23,031 bases of DNA, from NCBI GenBank assembly GCA_043767805.1, contig JAYUGC010000164.1:1-23031 (forward strand), written 5' to 3'. A program made the position numbers and the translations under genes. This document shows positions 1-22,893 of this stretch, one piece after another. This DNA is from Pseudomonadota bacterium. Its GTDB lineage: Bacteria; Bdellovibrionota; FAC87; UBA2466. The notes under the pieces were generated by a model. That model had not been told where the DNA came from. It worked only from the letters and a program-made list of their open reading frames with translations, and did no database searches. Positions within the stretch are counted from its first letter, which is position 1. Every line of letters begins with the position of its first letter.

Positions 1-808
1 AACTGGGGCGGAGCCGTCGGAGCCGCTCCTTCCGTTCGAGCCGTCGGAGCCGCCCGGATTGGAATAATAAGTCGTATTGGAGTGCGTGGTGGTGTTTCCA
101 TCGGAATCGGTCGTGGTGTAATAGTCGGTGTCGGACCAAGAATAGGAGCTTCCTCCGCTGCCGCCCCTTCCGCCGTTGCCGCCTATTCCGTTCGTCCCGG
201 CTTGTCCGCCTTTGCCGCCATCAAACTCCGGCGCGAGGAGCATGAGAAGGTGGGTGTCGTCTCCCGAAACCTTGACGATGATTTTGCCGCCGTCGCCGCC
301 ACGCTCTCCGCTCGTCGCGTTTCCGCCGTTGCCTCCGTCACCGCCGTTATCTCCCGACGTGCCCGAAGCATACCGGCTCGCATCCTATCCATCGGCCCCC
401 CCGGCCTCCGTCTTCGCCTTTGCCTCCATTGCCGCCCGTACCGCCGTCCCCGCCGACGGCGAGAAGCGGGATGTAACCTTTCGTGCCAACGACTGCCGAC
501 TTTTGAAAATCCCCTGGTTTTCCAACGGCTGGGGTCACGCGGCCCTTCAAGACGATGCCGCCTTTGCCGTCGCTCTGAAGCTTGAGATCGACGTTGCCCG
601 AGCTTTGTCCCGCTTCCGCGGGGCCAGCGTGTCCGCCGTCGCTCCCGTCGCGGTTCGTCGAGGCGTGGCCGGTATGGCTGACGCCGTCGCTTCCTTTTTG
701 GCCGTGGCGGCCCGAGACGTCGACCTTGATGAGGTCATTCTCGGCGAAGGCCGAAGCGGAGAGGGTGGCGATAAGGACGATTAGGGCTGAAGAAAGTTTC
801 GTTCTCAT
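1..808 (-). pseudogene. Secreted Gly-rich (GGxGGxGG, collagen-like) protein, split by a +1 frameshift near 385-402; 3' end lies beyond the window
   Basis: ATG at 808 gives the signal peptide MRTKLSSALIVLIATLSASAFA and then GGDGGTGGNGGKGEDGGRGG. That frame turns non-repetitive and stops at 349-347. The same Gly-rich style continues stop-free in the +1 frame from 384 to 1 (DASRYASGTSGDNGGDGGNGG...GGSSYSWSDTDYY...NPGGSDGS). Confidence 0.8.
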
Positions 809-936
809 TCTTTCAGCGTCGGAGTATTCCGCTAGAGGACATCCCGCTTCCGGCGCGGAATTTCGACATCGCTGGAAAAATAGCGAGTTAGCCCCTCGCT
901 TGCTGTGACTTTGGGATCGGCCTTGAGCCCCGGGGT

Positions 937-1599
937 TTAATCCCGGACGATCGAGGGCTTCGGCGCGAGCTCGTAGCACGCTTGTCCCTCGGCTCCGCTC
1001 GCGCGGCGAGTTTCGATGCATAGCTGGTCTTTGCCGACGTAGAAGTGTCCCCACGCACTCGGAGGCGCGCCAGAATGGGAGCCTTCCGTGGAGCAGGTCA
1101 CTTCTTTCTCCTTCTTCAAGGTTTCGCACAGGCCGCCGCAGGAAATGGGCTTGAGGTAGAAATCCGTATCGACGGTCACCTCGGAGATTTCGCAGTCGGC
1201 ATAGTGACTGACTTTAAAGGCGGAAACCGCCGGAGCGCACAAGGGGTCGGAGCCTTTGATCCAGCAGCGGTCTTTCACTTGGCGCAATTCCCAGTTGTAC
1301 GCGGGGTTCGGGGTGCCCCGGTCGATGTAGAGCTCTTCCGTTTCACAAATCGTCGACCAGTCGGAGCAGAAGCTTTGGCGAGTCACTCCCGTCTCACCGT
1401 TGCCCTGGTACTCTTGCCGTGCGGTGGAGCAGAGCGCGGTGCCGCTTTTTAGCACCCCGCATTTTTGCCGGCATACCGAGGCGCTTTGGCACTCGGTCGC
1501 TCCGAGTTTGGCGAGAAGCTCCGGAGTTACGTTTATCGTCGATATCGCCTGAAGAGAGAGGGAATAGAGAAGTCCGTAAAGGACGGTGAACGAGCGCAT
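937..1599 (-). CDS. Cys-rich secreted hypothetical protein (220 aa, 14 Cys), downstream of a TPP riboswitch
   Basis: ATG preceded by GGAAGGA SD; hydrophobic N-terminus MRSFTVLYGLLYSLSLQA; 14 cysteines counted; no recognisable family motif. Confidence 0.8.
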   Translation of the reverse strand: MRSFTVLYGLLYSLSLQAISTINVTPELLAKLGATECQSASVCRQKCGVLKSGTALCSTARQEYQGNGETGVTRQSFCSDWSTICETEELYIDRGTPNPAYNWELRQVKDRCWIKGSDPLCAPAVSAFKVSHYADCEISEVTVDTDFYLKPISCGGLCETLKKEKEVTCSTEGSHSGAPPSAWGHFYVGKDQLCIETRRASGAEGQACYELAPKPSIVRD

Positions 1600-1702
1600 C
1601 TTGGTTTCCTTCCGCCAGCATTACCTGGTTCAAGTAGTTCGGGTCGCTCACCCCGTGTGAGCCTCTCAGCCGTCTTGGACAGCTCCCCGTTGCGCCAGGA
1701 TG
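1597..1702 (-). promoter_or_regulatory. TPP (THI-box) riboswitch aptamer
   Basis: The minus strand reads CGGGGA-GCTGTC-CAA-GACGGC-TGAGAG-GCTCAC-ACGGG-GTGAGC-GACCCG-AACTA-CTT-GAA-CCAG-GTAATG-CTGG-CGG-AAG-GAAACCAAG-ATG. This gives P2 CGGG/CCCG, P3, the conserved UGAGA, P3a, P4 CUU/AAG (covarying with the usual CCU/AGG), P5 with the UAAU loop, and GCG at the P5/J5-4 junction. Confidence 0.92.
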
Positions 1703-1798
1703 TATTGCCGGCGTCTCGAGATGTCAATGCCGCGATCTCGCCAGATTCGTTACTGGGCGTCGCTAGCGCTCTCGTTCAAACTCATTCTGGGGGAAATT

Positions 1799-1945
1799 AT
1801 GCTAAAGGGACTCGCCGTATTCATGTTGTGTGCACTGTCTTTCTCGGTGAGAGCCGAGCACGCCGACGTCGACTTCCATCCTGAGCTTCCTCCCGAAAAG
1901 AAGCCCACTTGCGGCCGCCGTATCGAGTTCGACGAAGCTCATTGA
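1799..1945 (+). CDS. Small secreted peptide (48 aa) or truncated gene remnant
   Basis: GGGGGA SD 4 nt before ATG 1799; MLKGLAVFMLCALSFSVRA looks like a Sec signal ending in V-R-A; short charged mature part; TGA at 1943-1945. Confidence 0.5.
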   Translation: MLKGLAVFMLCALSFSVRAEHADVDFHPELPPEKKPTCGRRIEFDEAH

Positions 1946-7535: not shown

Positions 7536-10500
7536 CTATGGTTTGTAACGTCCGCCGTCGCCCATGTAAGGGTTGCCGGTTTCAGTAAAATCGGTGCCTC
7601 CCCAAATCATCATGTAGCCAGCTCCCCACACGGCAGTATGCTGGAACCGGCGGCGGCCCGGAAAGGGCGTTCCGACCACGTTCGTGGGTCCCCAAATATT
7701 CGTGAACGGGTTAAACATCACTCCGAAGTCATCGCCCCAATAAATGATTTGAGAGCTGGTCCACACCTGGGTTGAGAGACTAAACACGCGGGTGTTGGAA
7801 GGCGGCGTGTAGGCGGCCATTGCGGTCCAGACCCTCGTGGTCGGATTGTAGATCCCGCCTGTATTGGGAGGATTCGCGGTGCCCCCAAAGACCACCATTC
7901 GCGTACTCGCCCAGGTAGCGAGGCATTCTCGACGTTCAGAGGGGAGGGTGCCGGTGTAAGTCGTATCCCACGCGTCGGTGCCGGGAGTGTACTCTCCAAA
8001 AATCTGAGTACCGCCCGAGGCGGTATTCGATCCTCCAAAGACGATCATCTTTGTGCCCGTCCATACGCCACAAGGAGAATGGGGCGAATTGGGATAAATT
8101 GAGACCGGGTAGGGCCCTCTTGCCATGGTCGTCCACTGTTTGGTCGTAGGATCGTACTGACCGCCGAGGGGGAAGTCGTAATATTGTACGGCGTAAAAGT
8201 AGGAATGCATGCCTCCGAAGATGAGCATCTTAGAACCCGTCCAAAAGGCGATGTGCATAGATCTTTCCGACGGCACATTGGCTCCCGTGCCAGTGGCCGT
8301 CCAGGAATCGGAGGTCATCGTGTATTCTCCGCCGGTATTCGTGTCTCCGTAGTAGGCGTGGTCGTCGATTCCGCCCCAAATAATCATCTTGGTTCCCGTC
8401 CAGACAGCGGTGTGACCGTATCTTCCCTTTGGAGCGCCGGTCTCCGTTACCGCAGACCAAGAATCCGAAACAGGACTGTAGAGGGCACCGGTAGCTAGCT
8501 TTGCGCTTCCCGCCACGCCTCCCCAAATAATCATGCGAGAGCCGGTCCAAATCGCGGTGTGACCAACTCTTGCCGACGGAGCTCCCGAGGACGCCATCGT
8601 GAACCAAGTGGAATCCGAATAGGTATAAGCTACTTTGGAATGGCTCTGCCCGTTGGGATTGGTCACCGCCACGCTGATGGCGCCATAGGCGTGCGAGGGC
8701 GTTCTTCCGGTAATTTGGGAAGAGCTGACGAAAGTAAGTGACGTGAGCGGCAGGCCGTCAAAAGTGACGGTGGCACCCGAAACGAAATTACTGCCAGAGA
8801 CCGTGACGGCGGTGTTACCCGCGGAAGGACCGGTGGCGGGACTGACTGAATTGACGACTGGTGTCGCATAATAGGTATAGCCATTGGTAAGCGTGCCAGA
8901 CCCGATGGAAGGGGTTGTCATTACTACGTCCACAGTGGCCGGAGTGTGGCCAGCGGTAATGGCTCTCATCTCAGTGGATGAAATAAAGGTCGGCGATCCG
9001 GTCTGAATGACTCCGCCGATAGAAATGGCGGTGTTAGAGGCAAAGTTTGCTCCGTAGATCGTGACAGCGGTGCCCCCGTTACTGGTTCCTGAGCTCGGTG
9101 TTATGCTGCCGATGGAAGGAGCCGTTTGGTAAGTGAAGCCGTTCGTGAGAGTACCGCTTCCATAAGTGGTCGTAGCAACGACGTCCACAGCGCCAAGAGC
9201 GTGAGGTCCAGTTGCGCAACTTAGTCTAGTGGCGCTTAAGACGGTCAGTCCGCTGCAGTTTACCCCGCCTATGCTCACGGTCATGCCAGCTTCATAACCC
9301 TTTCCACTTAGAGTGACTGCAGTTCCGCCCGCGATAGGACCCCCGTTCGGAAAAATGCTCGTTACTGTGGGGGCAGTGCCGTTGTAGGTGTAGGCGTTCG
9401 TACCGGTGCCGACTTGGTTATCCTGGTTGGTAACCACGACATTCACGGCGCCGGCGTAATGGGCCTGTGTCGTTGCCGTCACGGTTGTCGCGTTTACGTA
9501 AGCATAGCTAATGGCGATCGTCCCACCGAAGGTCACTGAAGAAAGGCTTGGTAAGAATCCCGTGCCGGTGATGGTGACGTCAGTTCCTCCGTGAGAGGTC
9601 CCATTGTTTGGGTTCACTGAGGAGACGGTAGGAGCCGCTTGATAGGTATACCCGTTGGTTAGAGTACCGGTCTGCGAGTCGGGGTTGGTAACGACGACAT
9701 TTACGGTGGCTGCCGATCTTGCCCCGGTGGTGCAACGAAGTTGATAAGCCGCATCGAAGAGGACAGTGCCGCATGCCGCTCCGCCTATGCTCACCGTCGC
9801 GCCTGAGACGAAGTTGGTTCCGCCAATCGTTACGGACTGTCCGCCCGCCGTCGGTCCCCCAGTTTTGTTAATGTAGCTTATCGCGGGCGCAGCCCTGTAG
9901 AGGTAAGCGTTGGCTAAGAATCCGTCGACCCCGTTCGGGTTTGAGACTGTGATAGTGATGTAGCCGGGGACGGTAGTGGAAGGGTTTCCGTTACAAACTA
10001 GGGTAGTGGCATTGGTGAAAGTCACGGACGTGCAACTTTTTCCGCCGAAGTTGATAGTGGCTCCGCTTACAAAATTAGTTCCGGTGATCGTGACGTTTTG
10101 GCCGCCGGCAAGGGGACCGCTGCTCGCTGAGGCACTCACCACTGTCGGAGGGCCCGCGTAGGTGTAACCATTGGTCAGCGTGGAACTCTGTCCGTCGGGA
10201 TTGGTAATTACCACGTTCACGGCTCCCGCCGCGTGCGCCGGCGTCGTGCACTTGTAGGTATCTTGTGCCTGAAAGATCGAATTCGTGCAGGCACTTCCGC
10301 CCAGAGTAATCGTTGCGCCATATCGGAAGCTCGTTCCGGTTAGAGTGACCGGGGTAAAGCCGCCGGTAGTTCCCGTTGAGGGGGAAATCGAAGTGAGTGA
10401 AGGACCGGCTACATAGATGAAGCCATTGGCCAGGTTTCCGACTTCGCCGCTTACGGTGACGTTCACGTCCACGTTGCCTGCGGTATGGGCGGTAGTCGTG

Positions 10501-11523
10501 CAAGTGACCCTCGTAGAATTGACGAAGGTCAGCGAGCCGCAGTTAGAGCCCCCTAAACTTGCAGAGGTCTGGCCACTGACGAATCCGGTACCGTCAATGG
10601 TAACCGGTGTGCCGCCGGCCACCGCTCCGGTTGAAGGAGTGATGGATGTTACGCCTGGAACGGTGAGAAAAACGCCGTCCGCCACGCGGATCTTGTTGAT
10701 AAGGCCGCCCGTATACGAGCCAATCGTTCCCCGTCCTACGGCGTAAATATAGAGAGTGTCGCCGAAGTACGATCCGCCGTTGAGTACGTCGTCACTGGAA
10801 CCGACGGGATGAACGCTCAGCCCATCGCCATCGAAGTTCGTGTCCGGCACTCCGGAGGCGCCCAGGCGAACGGCCAGCGCATCGTAGTTCGTTCCGTTGT
10901 AGGCGGTGCCCACACTCAGGAATTTACCGCCGGTCACGTCTTGAATCGACGAATTCAAGATGCAGTCTTTCGTCGGCGACGCGCCGTCGTGACTGATGAT
11001 CGTAATTCCCTGATTGTCTATTCCGCCCGTAATGGTCACCTTTCCCCAGGAGCTCAGCAAGTTTCCTGTCGTAGGATGTACGGCGACGACAGCGCATCTC
11101 CAGGGAGGAGTAGAGTCGTTGACTCGATTTCCGCCGACGACGATGATCGTATCTCCGACCCGAGAAATTCCTGCGGGTACGGAGTCGGTACCGCCGCCGG
11201 CCGCGGCGAAGTTCACCGCGGTTCCCCAGGGGCTACCGCTTGCGGTCAAAGTGCTGTCGAAACGGTGGACGTAGAAGTTATTTGTACCCGTCGTTTCCGT
11301 ACTCGCCGTGTAAACGTAGCCAGCGTCATGGTAGGCGATGCCGACGGCTGTACCGTCGATTCCGCTCAGGGTGGTGGAGTTACCGAGCGTCCCGTTCGTG
11401 GCGTCGTAGGAAGCAACGAACGGATGTCATCTCGATGCCGTCAAAACGGGGATCGGCCGAGCCAACGGAGGCCCAAAGTAAAAGGCAAAGAAGCGAAATG
11501 AATTTCCTAATGATTGTAGGCAT
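7536..11523 (-). pseudogene. Large secreted surface protein (N-terminal beta-propeller-like repeats, 8 IPT/TIG domains, 7 Kelch-like repeats); signal peptide out of frame with the body
   Basis: The main frame is open from 11426 to 7536, with 8 repeats of PxVxSIxPxxGxxxGGxxVTIxGxxF and 7 of HTAVWTGxxMIIWGG type. ATG 11523 encodes MPTIIRKFISLLCLLLWASVGSA in another frame that stops at 11382-11380. The main frame has TGA at 11429-11427. Confidence 0.85.
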
Positions 11524-19223: not shown

Positions 19224-19268
19224 GGCGGGTTAGGGGTCCCATTAACGACAGCTTTGGGAGATTCAGTG

Positions 19269-21014
19269 ATGAAACACACCGCGCTACTGCTTTGCGCTTT
19301 CCTAGCCATCGGCGCTCACGCCGAAAAGGTTTTCAAGTACTCGGAAAACGGAGTCGCCGCTAACCTGGATCCCACCCAGGCGAACACCATCTACGACTCC
19401 ATGATCCTGAAAAACATTTACGATACGCCTTATACGTATCTGTATCTGAAACGACCGTATGAGCTCGCCCCTCAGCTCGCGGAAGCGATGCCGAAGGTCA
19501 GCAAAGACGGCCTCACTTACACTTTTACGATCAAAAAGGGCGTCCTCTATGCCGACGATCCTTGTTTCAAGGACGGCAAAGGCCGCGAAGTCGTGGCGGA
19601 AGATTTCGTTTATGGCATGAAGCGCCATTTCGATCCCAATACCCGCTCGCGCAACACCTGGTTGTGGAAAGATCGCATTGTCGGTCTCGATGAGTGGAAA
19701 GAAAAGGGCTCGAACTACGCGAAAGACGTCGAGGGCCTTCAGGCCGTCGATAAGCACACCATCCGCATCAAGCTCAAAAAGCCGTATCCGCAGCTCCTCT
19801 ATACGCTCGCGATGGTTCCGGCCGGCTTCGTTCCCAAGGAAGCGGTCGATAAGTACGGCAAAGAGTTCGGTATCAAGCCCGTCGGCTCGGGTCCCTTCAG
19901 GCTCGAGTCCTTCAATAGCAAGAAGGCGGTCCTGGTCCGCAACCCGAACTACCGCGAAGAAAAGCTCGATCTCAAAGCCGAAGGCTATCACGAAGCGGCT
20001 TATGGCCGGTACGGACTCAAAGAGCTCGACGGCCAGAAACTTCCCATCGTCGACAAAGTGGAAGTTCACTTCTTCGACAACCCGATGCCTCGCTGGGCGT
20101 CTTTCTCCAAAGGCTCGGAGATCCATTCGACCGCCGTTCCCCCGGAACTTTTGAAAAACGTGACGTCCTCGACCAATCCCGTGAAGCTGAAGCCGGAGTA
20201 CGACAAGAAGTACAACTGGAAATCAGCGACGGAGTTTGGCCTCGTCTACACCAATTTCAACATGGACGACCCCCGGGTCGGCTATAGCTCCGATCCGAAG
20301 CAGGCGGAGAAAAACAAAGCGCTCCGTTGCGCGATTCGTAAGGGCTTTAACTGGCAGGAGCGCATCCGGAAGTTCTATTACGGCATCGGCGAAGCGTTTC
20401 CGGGCATCATCCCGCCCGGCATCGACGGTTACGATGCGGCCATGTCCAAAGAGTCCATCACCAACGACGTCGAAGGGGCGAAGAAGCTTCTCGCGGACGC
20501 GGGCTGGACGGCGAAGGACCTGCCGGTGCTTGAAGACGGAGGCGTCGCCAGTACGCTCAATCAGCAGTTTTTCGAGCAGTTCCGCGGCTGGATGCTGAAA
20601 ATCGGCTACCCGCGTGAAAAGATCAAAGCGCTCACCTACGCGACTTTCGGCGACTACAGCAAGGCCATGAAGGAGAAGAAAATTCTCATGCACGGGCTCG
20701 GCTGGGCCATCGACTATCCGGATAGCGAAAATCTCCTTCAGCTCTTTTACGGGCCGAACGAATCGCCCGGATCGAACTCGTCCAACTACAAGAATGCGAA
20801 ATACGACGAGCTTTTCAAGAAGTCGTCGACCATGCAGCCTTCGCCTGAGCGCACCGAGATCTACAAGCAGCTGAACAAGATGCTGGTCGACGACTGCGTG
20901 ACCATCGCGGGCTTCTCGCGCACGGGTATCGGCCTGTGGCACAAGAACGTGCTCATGTTCCCGGACAGAGACGTTCTGGGCGGCGCGTTCTTTAAGTACG
21001 TCGGAACGAAATAG
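19269..21014 (+). CDS. oppA: ABC transporter substrate-binding protein, family 5 (oligopeptide/dipeptide/nickel)
   Basis: GGGAG SD; signal peptide; NLDP, PQLAEAMPKVSKDGLTYTFTIK, AEDFVY, PVGSGPF and WAIDYPD motifs. The symbol is family-level only. Confidence 0.92.
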   Translation: MKHTALLLCAFLAIGAHAEKVFKYSENGVAANLDPTQANTIYDSMILKNIYDTPYTYLYLKRPYELAPQLAEAMPKVSKDGLTYTFTIKKGVLYADDPCFKDGKGREVVAEDFVYGMKRHFDPNTRSRNTWLWKDRIVGLDEWKEKGSNYAKDVEGLQAVDKHTIRIKLKKPYPQLLYTLAMVPAGFVPKEAVDKYGKEFGIKPVGSGPFRLESFNSKKAVLVRNPNYREEKLDLKAEGYHEAAYGRYGLKELDGQKLPIVDKVEVHFFDNPMPRWASFSKGSEIHSTAVPPELLKNVTSSTNPVKLKPEYDKKYNWKSATEFGLVYTNFNMDDPRVGYSSDPKQAEKNKALRCAIRKGFNWQERIRKFYYGIGEAFPGIIPPGIDGYDAAMSKESITNDVEGAKKLLADAGWTAKDLPVLEDGGVASTLNQQFFEQFRGWMLKIGYPREKIKALTYATFGDYSKAMKEKKILMHGLGWAIDYPDSENLLQLFYGPNESPGSNSSNYKNAKYDELFKKSSTMQPSPERTEIYKQLNKMLVDDCVTIAGFSRTGIGLWHKNVLMFPDRDVLGGAFFKYVGTK

Positions 21015-21035
21015 ATTCCGCGGGGCGGAATCTAT
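21011..21035 (+). other. Intercistronic stem-loop after the binding-protein gene
   Basis: ATAGATTCCGC-GGG-GCGGAATCTAT, an 11-bp perfect stem without a U-tract; typical mRNA-stabilising position in ABC operons. Confidence 0.6.
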
Positions 21036-21064
21036 CCTGAGGAGTCCGGCGACGAAGGATCTTG

Positions 21065-22018
21065 ATGGAAACTCTGGTCTACGCTTTCAGAAAGCTCCTG
21101 TATGGGCTTCCGCTCGTGCTCGGAGTCACGCTCATCAGCTTCGTGCTGATGGTGTACTTCGGGCCCGATAAGACTTACGACCTGCTCGGTAAGAACGCCA
21201 CCGTGCAGGAGATAGCGGAGGTCCGTCATCAGCTGGGTTATGACCGCCCGTTCGTGGCGCGGTACGCCGAGTACTTGAAAGAACTCGTCACCATGGACTT
21301 CGGCAATAGCGATTCCACGGGGGAGAAGGTGAGCTCCATTTTCGCGCGCACCGTGCCGGTCACTTTCGCGCTGTCTCTGCCGGGCTTCATTCTGGGGGAA
21401 CTACTCGCCATCGCCATCGCGCTGTTCGCGGCGTTTTACCGTGGGAGGTGGCAGGACCGGGTGGTGATGACACTCTCCGTGGTAGGGATGAGTATTTCGT
21501 TACTGGTCATCGTCATCGGCTTCCAGATTCTGTTTTGCTCGTCCTACGGCTTGAACCTCTTTCCCGTGACGGGGTGGAGTACCGAGAATTTTCACGAATA
21601 TCTGCTCTATGTCGCCGTCCCAACTCTGGTGAGCGTTTTCGTGAGCCTCGGCTATAACGCGCGGTTTTTCCGCGCGGTAGTCGTCGAGGAAATGGGCCGG
21701 GATCACATCCGCACCGCCTTGGCCTACGGCTGTCCTCCGCTTCCGCTGCTCTTTAAGCATGTGCTGAAGAACTGCATGGTGCCCATTATCACGCGTACGG
21801 TCTTTTCGATTCCGTATCTCTTTATCGGCGGAAGCCTCGTCATCGAAGGGTACTTCAGCATTCCTGGCATCGGGCTCAGCACTTATCAGGCGATCACCTC
21901 GGGCGATCAGCCTTTGATGAAGGCCTTGGTCGGCGTCACTGCCGTCGCTTACGTTTTCTGTCTCATTTTGACCGACATCCTGTATCAGGTCTTCGATCCG
22001 AGGATTAGTCTCAAATGA
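21065..22018 (+). CDS. oppB: Peptide ABC transporter permease (OppB/DppB)
   Basis: LGYDRP, DFGNS, EAA-like loop DHIRTALAYG, KHVLKN, FSIPGIG and DPRI motifs. Confidence 0.93.
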   Translation: METLVYAFRKLLYGLPLVLGVTLISFVLMVYFGPDKTYDLLGKNATVQEIAEVRHQLGYDRPFVARYAEYLKELVTMDFGNSDSTGEKVSSIFARTVPVTFALSLPGFILGELLAIAIALFAAFYRGRWQDRVVMTLSVVGMSISLLVIVIGFQILFCSSYGLNLFPVTGWSTENFHEYLLYVAVPTLVSVFVSLGYNARFFRAVVVEEMGRDHIRTALAYGCPPLPLLFKHVLKNCMVPIITRTVFSIPYLFIGGSLVIEGYFSIPGIGLSTYQAITSGDQPLMKALVGVTAVAYVFCLILTDILYQVFDPRISLK

Positions 22019-22893
22019 CGGCGAATATCGTAAAAGCCGAGCCCCGGGACTCGCTTTGGAAGCGCGCCTACCGCAAGCTCTCCAAGGACAAAGTCGGCAT
22101 TGCGGCGCTTGCCGTCGTCCTTCTTTATTTGATCATCGCGCTCGGCGTGCGGTTTCTGAACTGGGGCGAGGGCTGGGACGAGCTGGTGAAAGACGGCTGG
22201 ACGCCCATGTCGCCCGAGCATTGGTTCGGCACGAACCGCAACGGGCAGGACATCTATAAGCGAACCATCTACAGCACCAAAACCGCTTTCGAAGTTGGGA
22301 TCCTCGTCGCCCTGTTCTCGACGCTCCTGGGCGGCCTGCTCGGCTGTATCTCGGGTTTCTTCAGCGGCACGTGGATCGATGAAGTCATCATCTGGCTCTA
22401 CGGCTGTCTGGATTCCATTCCGTTTTTTCTTTTCGTGGCGGCGGTGGCCTTTGCCATGAAGGCCAGCCCCTGGGCCATGCACATCGCCATGATCGCGACT
22501 TTCTGGACGACGACCGCAAGGCTCGTGCGCGGCGAAGTGATCAAGATCAAGTACTTCGAGTACATCGAAGCGGCCCGCGCCCTCGGTGTCCCGAAAAGCC
22601 GCATCTTGTTCCGCCACATCTTGCCCAACACGACTCACATCCTTCTTGTGCAAAGCACCATCGTTTTCGTCACCGCCATCAAGAACGAAGTCATCTTGAG
22701 TTTCTTGGGACTCGGCGTGAAAGAGGGCATCAGCTGGGGTCTCATGATCGGAGAGGCCGCTTCCGAAGTGGGCGCGGGGGAGTTCAATAACCTCATCGCT
22801 TCATCCGTCTTCATGTTCGTCCTCGTGATGGCGTTCAATCTCTTTTCCGATTCCCTCCAGGACGCCCTCGATCCGCGGAAGGTTAGCGCATGA
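22015..22893 (+). CDS. oppC: Peptide ABC transporter permease (OppC/DppC)
   Basis: [34 protein letters not shown] and DALDPR motifs; ATGA overlap. Confidence 0.93.

Follow-up and report, generated by a model that had tools for sequence, protein, structure and literature searches.

A TPP aptamer over the start codon of a cysteine-rich orphan gene in the Bdellovibrionota: a candidate accessory of thiamine acquisition

The stretch of DNA considered here, called the window, consists of 23,031 nucleotides (nt) of the contig JAYUGC010000164.1 (assembly GCA_043767805.1) from a bacterium of the Bdellovibrionota. On its minus strand a riboswitch aptamer for thiamine pyrophosphate (TPP) overlaps the start codon of P0001, an open reading frame (ORF) for a protein of 220 amino acids (aa) which resembles no known thiamine protein. 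We regard it as very likely that this is a real, ligand-responsive TPP switch which controls P0001. The explanation that we favour, tentatively, is that P0001 is a TPP-repressed, probably exported, disulfide-rich orphan serving thiamine acquisition. The riboswitch is ordinary in kind; its target is not.

The aptamer and the start of translation

A permissive Rfam scan of positions 1500-2000 matched the TPP family RF00059 on the minus strand over its full length (model positions 1-105 of 105), with E values of 3.9e-9 for the 501-nt search and 8.2e-9 genome-wide (coordinates of this and the other features are collected in Table 1). It is the only RF00059 match in the host genome, G000 (4.52 Mb, 100% complete). 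An earlier note, made from the sequence alone, had described a complete TPP aptamer at the start codon of P0001, and this description is borne out, the aptamer overlapping the AUG. In the cmscan alignment CUGAGA, ACCC and the P4/P5 core 'CCAGGUAAUGCUGGCG' are all intact. The elements of the pyrimidine sensor (P2/P3 with CUGAGA and ACCC) are present, and the columns in question are invariant across the 13 aptamers found in the host's family; the pyrophosphate sensor, P4/P5 with the conserved loop and the CG bulge, reads ACUUGAACCAGGUAAUGCUGGCGGAAGG and fits the consensus except at the base of P4, where a single G-G mismatch occurs. The aptamer is also present in a related strain from another sample. 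The differences listed for it, a substitution G>A at 1655 and an insertion of 2 nt behind 1676, fall in hairpin loops (the P3 loop and the loop of the P2 extension) when they are mapped by hand from predicted folds.

When P2, P4 and P5 are enforced in ViennaRNA an alternative P1 of 6 bp forms between 1696-1691 and 1598-1593, and the start codon takes part in it. P1 helices of different sequence which also span the start codon appear under constrained folding in L043 (thiB), L065 and L095, and in 10 of the 13 family loci the start codon is at most 16 nt from the end of the model. Because of these start-codon-spanning helices in several loci and of the short distances, we conclude that the lineage uses a compact switch design in which the Shine-Dalgarno (SD) sequence and the AUG lie inside the aptamer and a separate expression platform is dispensed with.

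According to this scheme the riboswitch would repress translation of P0001 as long as the cell has sufficient TPP. In the TPP-bound fold P4 would hold part of the SD sequence and P1 would pair the start codon, and ribosome initiation would be blocked. When TPP falls the leader would refold, and P0001 would be made and sent to the periplasm or to the outside, where it might assist thiamine acquisition outside the cytoplasm by capturing thiamine or its phosphates, or by setting them free, for uptake. The OFF-switch logic of this scheme is inferred.

The unconstrained minimum free energy (MFE) fold differs from the aptamer fold. It has -52.6 kcal/mol for a 141-nt stretch; for a 133-nt stretch the free value is -42.5, and enforcing the aptamer gives -36.0. 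An upstream segment pairs in the ligand-free MFE fold with the 3' strand of P5, and this predicted fold may be the competing state. The upstream segment, CGCCGGCAAUAC (1700-1715(-)), has near-complementarity to 1614-1625(-), the loop and 3' strand of P5, with which it pairs in the MFE fold (z -2.3); going by these models it could be an anti-aptamer element 5' of the aptamer. A sigma-70-like promoter was sought near the switch and none was found.

The orphan protein and its host

The 220-aa ORF with 14 Cys residues stands as the earlier note had given it. A word-indexed search of 5.8 billion clusters returned one relative, P0002, a protein of 226 aa whose contig is 2057 bp long. We hold P0001 to be a real gene because P0002 is 70% identical to it, keeps all 14 Cys and differs in length by a single 6-residue indel. 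Five weak matches were all that an exhaustive HMMER profile search among 1.84 billion representatives contributed. The four of these that were scanned against Pfam are long proteins, mostly of repetitive sequence; three have Ig/PKD repeats and type IX secretion sorting domains, and one has only weak coiled-coil-type hits. All of them were judged compositional and rejected. No related P0001 loci were found in metagenome and genome contigs, P0001 is absent from all 33 other genomes of the host's family, and a protein atlas search gave no usable match. Nor is there a significant Pfam or NCBIfam match to ThiB/TbpA, ThiY/NMT1, TenA, ThiT, ThiW, PnuT, CytX, YkoE/F, TonB receptors, TPK or ThiM/D/E/C. 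With the PDB sequence and HMMER profile searches also devoid of such matches, the earlier statement that P0001 belongs to no known thiamine family holds.

The N-terminus has R2, an uncharged run of 24 residues and LQA at 16-18. Its best 10-residue hydropathy is 1.51, that of P0002 is 2.00. For comparison, 17 of 17 ThiB-like and TonB proteins from the phylum lie between 1.96 and 3.41 and nine of nine ThiC and ThiM proteins at or below 1.81; P0001 tops eight of the latter nine, the exception being a ThiM-ThiE fusion with 1.81. The N-terminus looks like the signal peptide of the earlier note, but a weaker one than bona fide exported proteins have. R2, the uncharged run and LQA together with the 14 conserved Cys make export plausible as far as the sequence goes, and we consider P0001 probably exported.

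The AlphaFold2 model of P0001 consists of a helix bearing CxxxC with a four-strand meander (residues 40-115), followed by a weaker helix with three strands (157-213). An internal duplication of P0001 is unsupported by sequence (N-half against C-half, hhalign E 0.21). On this model of pLDDT 60, VIA-align wide gave a best Z of 5.5, with a designed cystatin fold at Z 5.0; Z below 8 is the range of common arrangements. The checks on homologues and structure proposed in the earlier note have in this way yielded one relative with its 14 Cys kept, while the fold search returned only generic matches.

As to the host, genome searches of G000 found no ThiC, ThiE, TPK or ThiN, and for ThiD only sub-threshold matches of 20 bits. 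The match to ThiG is PdxS. ThiL is present (210 bits), and contig C176 carries prmA, a small ORF, ThiB (TIGR01254, 245 bits), ThiP and ThiQ. Since ThiC, ThiE, ThiN and TPK are missing and ThiD and ThiG are without a convincing match, yet ThiL and ThiBPQ are present, the host is, by its gene content, a thiamine auxotroph which imports thiamine or its phosphates. A search of G000 with one protein query for the SSF symporter of the thiamine type, common in the phylum, came back empty, and such a result shows little. In the window itself no thi gene was detected (Pfam, 17 proteins; NCBIfam, 13 proteins), in agreement with the earlier note. That P0001 may be an accessory of thiamine acquisition is suggested by a host which has no way of making thiamine and relies on ThiBPQ for import and on ThiL. 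Of the thiamine-linked function which the earlier note had suggested, it is the link to the thiamine economy that has become stronger, the switch being the sole one of an auxotroph and its layout recurring in the phylum; an extracytoplasmic, thiamine-related role of the protein is plausible.

Table 1. Features of the switch and of P0001 (window coordinates)
Feature	Coordinates	Strand	Basis or remark
TPP (THI-box) aptamer, full model length	1590..1699	-	RF00059 50.9 bits, E 3.9e-9; sole match in genome
P1 5' strand GGCGCA	1691..1696	-	ViennaRNA with aptamer helices enforced; outside Rfam register
P1 3' strand UGCGCU, UG of AUG and the next 4 nt	1593..1598	-	Constrained fold
Shine-Dalgarno-like GGAAGGA, partly P4 3' strand, 7 nt upstream of AUG	1607..1613	-	Sequence reading; P4 from cmscan
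P0001, an orphan ORF of 220 aa with 14 Cys; its stop codon is 937-939	937..1599	-	P0002 70% identical, 14 Cys invariant
Putative Sec signal peptide MRSFTVLYGLLYSLSLQA, codons 1-18	1546..1599	-	By eye; hydropathy 1.51
Terminator-like hairpin, 6-bp stem and U-run, 37 nt past stop	882..900	-	2 such sites found, 2.4 expected in shuffles

Recurrence of the arrangement and the explanations weighed

A scan of public collections for the P4/P5 core gave 86 loci (47 genome, 39 metagenome), whose downstream ORFs were sorted by BLAST clustering, Pfam and NCBIfam spot checks and partly by eye. The first downstream ORFs are TonB receptors (about 35), SSF symporters (6), ThiB-like (5), ThiC (5), ThiM (4) and ThiT (3), with one each of PnuT, TPK, ThiW, MFS and CytX-like; 8 unclassified terminator-type leaders and 2 loci with too little sequence are included. 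The remaining 13, in seven sequence groups and with some metagenome duplicates, have small ORFs of no family with a signal peptide and mostly an even number of Cys. At 7 of these 13 the next listed ORF is convergent, so that most orphan ORFs look monocistronic. The aptamers nearest to that of the window are those of orphan loci, 72-79% identical against 67-72% for ThiB, ThiM and ThiC, which is a small margin.

An unbiased sample was obtained by running RF00059 on 151 genomes of the phylum, 149 of them with a completeness of 90% or more and a contamination of 5% or less. There are 72 TPP switches in 67 of the 151 genomes. The targets are SSF (23, with 2 more inferred and 1 unclear), TonB (12), ThiM (6), ThiB-like (6), ThiC (4), YkoE-like (4), MFS (1), SBP_bac_5 (1), DUF2608 (1), larger proteins of no family (4) and small orphans (7). 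These seven, P0001 among them, are ORFs of 111-241 aa without a Pfam family and with a hydrophobic N-terminus, and six of the seven orphan-target genomes have a single switch. An orphan also follows the only switch of each of G034, G036 and G037, and both switches of G035 are followed by orphans, which are paralogues. An N-terminus of the exported or membrane type is found, by a crude rule, in 10 of the 12 non-canonical targets and in 33-46% of 3900 crude G000 ORFs. The genomes of the phylum are related and hence not independent, and no test statistic is given.

Some further observations concern the other targets. The paralogous proteins of G035 (L031, L056) are signal-peptide proteins of 142 aa with a CxxxC motif. 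The commonest TPP-controlled gene in the phylum codes for an SSF symporter of about 470 aa (23 of 72 confirmed by Pfam; loci L127-L180), and at L162:231-1652(-) of genome G127 a solute-binding protein of family 5 and of the Opp/Dpp type (SBP_bac_5) stands behind a TPP switch. Three targets of about 245-281 aa have a hydrophobic segment at the N-terminus (L005:689-1510(-), L010:669-1511(-), L129:1601-2335(+)); two of them carry a DxDxT-like 'DYD(G/S)T' motif and the third is a DUF2608 protein. A related membrane protein of 439 aa lies behind a TPP switch at L004:1585-2901(+). None of these four has an NCBIfam name; they might act on thiamine phosphates as extracytoplasmic phosphatases.

Within the host's family a single TPP match at E<=0.001 is present in each of 13 of the 34 genomes, G000 included. 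The other 12 switches precede thiC (3), thiM (3), ThiB-like genes (3), the gene of the 439-aa membrane protein (1) and those of related proteins of 274 and 281 aa (2), the last two again with a hydrophobic N-terminal segment. To the ThiB-linked aptamers of the family the window aptamer is 68-70% identical, to the others 47-56%. The thiB neighbourhood is syntenic in G005 and G007, where it consists of a TPR gene, prmA, the switch and thiBPQ, and it is intact, without the switch or any remnant of it, in G000 and in G004, a genome of the same genus. In these two (C176, L115 3000-4470 in G000; C113, L116 in G004) thiBPQ has a short promoter-like leader which is common to both. Between prmA and thiB there is a small ORF, and weakly similar ORFs (30% identity) occupy the same place in G005 and G007. 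The window switch adjoins an adenine deaminase gene, and the synteny with G004 covers the window from 1990 rightwards and leaves out 1-1990. The earlier note had considered that P0001 displaced the original target of the switch. Displacement of thiB in situ is not supported, because thiBPQ is intact on another contig, no remnant of an aptamer was found upstream of the G000 thiB, and the window switch is at a locus which is missing in G004; relocation or acquisition of a unit of switch plus gene fits better.

A number of results weigh against reading P0001 as an exported accessory of thiamine acquisition under TPP control. The aptamer scores 3.4 bits below the Rfam gathering score of 54.3, a default scan of the window at that score lists nothing, and in the Rfam register only one of five P1 pairs is canonical. 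The low score comes mainly from the P1 penalty and reflects a linker of about 11 nt which joins P4 to P1 and bears the SD sequence. In the ligand-free MFE fold the SD sequence is paired too, and for this reason the ON state is inferred and is not evident from folding alone. P0001 fails the crude hydropathy rule for export, lying below all 17 exported controls, and is one of the two among the 12 non-canonical targets that fail the N-terminal rule, to which 1 of 10 ThiC/ThiM controls is positive. No Pfam family matches P0001 at E<=0.01, NCBIfam gives 13-bit NuoE noise only, no PDB sequence matches at E<=1, the structural model is poor (pLDDT 60), and Foldseek finds nothing in the PDB at E<=0.001 (TM at most 0.21). 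The genome G004, 93% complete, has neither the switch nor P0001, so that the unit is dispensable in the genus. Comparisons between the orphan groups with hhalign and phmmer were all null except for the C-half of P0001 against a group of 111-aa proteins; and because the orphans are mutually unrelated by sequence, repeated capture of fast-evolving secreted genes fits as well as a shared function.

Several other explanations may be considered. Shortage of TPP might signal starvation and so call up a secreted effector, antagonistic, lytic or adhesive, which does not itself touch thiamine and helps a bacterium of a predatory lineage to get cofactors from other cells. Small, Cys-rich, lineage-restricted and fast-evolving proteins with exported-type N-termini are typical of effectors. 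The orphan groups behind TPP switches have no common sequence, their families are tiny (one relative of P0001 in 5.8 billion clusters, two more members for the 111-aa family), and the loci with the aptamer core are labelled Bdellovibrionota, Bacteriovoracaceae, Oligoflexales and Myxococcota metagenome-assembled genomes. We nevertheless find the effector somewhat unlikely: PADLOC matched no toxin or defence model (0 families for six of six proteins), the unit looks monocistronic and has no immunity-like partner gene, and all other classified TPP targets in the phylum belong to uptake or salvage. Incidental capture, in which the switch, alone or together with the gene, came to this place through transfer or rearrangement and imposes TPP control without an adaptive link to thiamine, would agree with a G004 synteny that breaks off precisely on that side of the adenine deaminase gene which faces the switch, with an intact, switch-less thiBPQ elsewhere (the target of the most similar in-family aptamers), and with the absence of P0001 from the other 33 family genomes. 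It does not account for the retention of every conserved ligand-contact motif, with the related strain differing in loops only (by our own indexing), nor for an SD sequence and AUG built into the aptamer, for the same layout with independent orphans, often at the sole switch of a genome, or for non-canonical targets which by the crude rule are nearly all extracytoplasmic; capture therefore seems unlikely. That the locus is a relic, a decaying aptamer and/or a non-coding ORF without current function, is very improbable. The score under the Rfam cut-off, the P1 mismatches, the low recognition of P0001 by a protein language model (1801 vs 2300) and a listing of public runs in which no holder of the RNA appeared would point to decay, but the E value is 8e-9, all conserved motifs are intact, scores of the same order (49.1-56.8 bits) are seen for ThiB-linked aptamers in sister genera, and the ORF is well conserved in P0002, with its Cys invariant, and has a proper SD spacing.

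The 111-aa proteins just mentioned are a secreted, Cys-rich family behind TPP switches (L036, L065, L163, P0008, P0009). Their loci are like that of P0001 in having the same aptamer class (78% identity, among the nearest), a monocistronic gene, a signal peptide, putative in P0001, and, in low-confidence models, a CxxxC helix with a four-strand meander. In phmmer P0001 finds the group at E 1e-3 to 6e-3 (about 100 sequences), with a Cys-for-Cys alignment over residues 149-199 of P0001, and hhalign gives the C-half E 5.5e-4 (probability 30%) and the full profiles E 0.006 (probability 6%). The 111-aa model (pLDDT 60) has a helix and four strands in the same order as the low-confidence model of P0001. 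The VIA lists of the two (best Z for the 111-aa model 4.7) consist of generic beta-meanders, with several low hits in common, 7oc9 (Z 4.3) among them. The spacings of six Cys are 22-3-11-24-17 and 17-3-10-24-13, and shuffled sequences match as well in 4.6% (tolerance 4), 7.7% (tolerance 2) and 19% (tolerance 3) of cases. P0001 is twice as long as the 111-aa proteins and homology is unproven; on these alignments the C-half of P0001 is possibly homologous to them. A kinship of P0001 with L174 was rejected, the 7.7 bits being due to the signal peptide and a 'VCRQK' motif only.

One may speculate that P0001, with two modules, and the 111-aa family, with one, form an undescribed class of exported, disulfide-locked vitamin-capture proteins repressed by TPP. 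With a CxxxC helix on a beta-meander they would capture thiamine or its phosphates, to be taken up by ThiBPQ or SSF importers, when TPP is low in auxotrophic Bdellovibrionota and related predators, as a thiamine counterpart of hemophores and BtuG, and the other orphans would be rapidly diverging solutions to the same task. We consider such a class unlikely.

Surroundings of the locus and known systems

The window is the whole of contig C164, and a public contig extends 1476 nt past its start. Beyond P0001 the next ORF on the minus strand, 347-808, starts 128 nt further on; it is Gly-rich and has a hydrophobic, signal-peptide-like N-terminus. Another Gly-rich ORF, 1-243(-), runs off the contig end, and the Gly-rich ORFs of 1-808 carry GGxGG-type repeats. 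Between the switch and the adenine deaminase gene there is a small ORF, 1700-1945(+), of 81 aa (51 aa from an inner ATG) and without a Pfam hit. It is probably not a gene, because the contig of the related strain lacks 1799-1950. Further on, 7536-11249(-) codes for a protein of 1237 aa with TIG/IPT repeats and a Kelch beta-propeller, situated between two ABC-2 transporter genes. In G004 the positions corresponding to 7513 and 11720 are 6 nt apart, so that this gene was inserted here or deleted there. An operon at 19254-22893, of two permeases and an SBP_bac_5 protein similar to that of L162, has no switch.

Riboswitches are among the most reliable pointers to gene function, and here the only TPP sensor of a bacterium which by its gene content depends on thiamine serves a protein that is probably exported and that cannot be classified. 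In the sampled phylum about one TPP switch in ten is similar in layout. P0001 is a candidate new player in how vitamin B1-dependent bacteria of predatory lineages cope with a shortage of the vitamin. Should the orphans bind or release thiamine, B1 scavenging in predatory and sediment bacteria would gain a new component, a new small binding scaffold would be on offer, and vitamin status would be seen to control what these cells export. Should they be effectors instead, antagonism would be triggered by the TPP level, a role not recognised before.

The switch of E. coli thiM is a TPP riboswitch of the translational type. Like such switches the window aptamer is full-length and sits on the ribosome-binding site; unlike the usual TPP switch it has the SD sequence in P4 and in the linker between P4 and P1, and the 3' strand of P1, about 11 nt off the Rfam register, is the start codon. 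ThiB/TbpA is, as P0001 would be, extracytoplasmic, and is controlled in sister genera by TPP switches (L011, L012, L014) with aptamers 68-70% identical to that of the window. P0001 differs from it in having neither an SBP domain nor any similarity, and the host has its own switch-less ThiB elsewhere. BtuG-type B12 binders of Bacteroides are riboswitch-linked accessory proteins of vitamin capture, and HasA is a hemophore. The likeness of P0001 to these would be one of concept only, an exported binder which is turned on at cofactor shortage and feeds a transporter.

The published classes of TPP regulon, as far as the main text of PMC3766115 goes, are biosynthesis and transport only, and P0001 falls outside both. 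In the literature covered, on TPP riboswitches and regulons and on auxotrophy in the Bdellovibrionota, no such proteins are described; the supplementary gene lists of PMC3766115, outside this search, might hold hypothetical members. According to the excerpt of PMC11223231, OarX was assigned to thiamin salvage through its association with a TPP riboswitch. It is there a cytoplasmic SDR clustered with thi genes, whereas P0001 is an orphan without thi neighbours. OarX nonetheless provides, in that account, a precedent that a TPP switch before an unassigned gene can reveal a thiamin function (PMC11223231).

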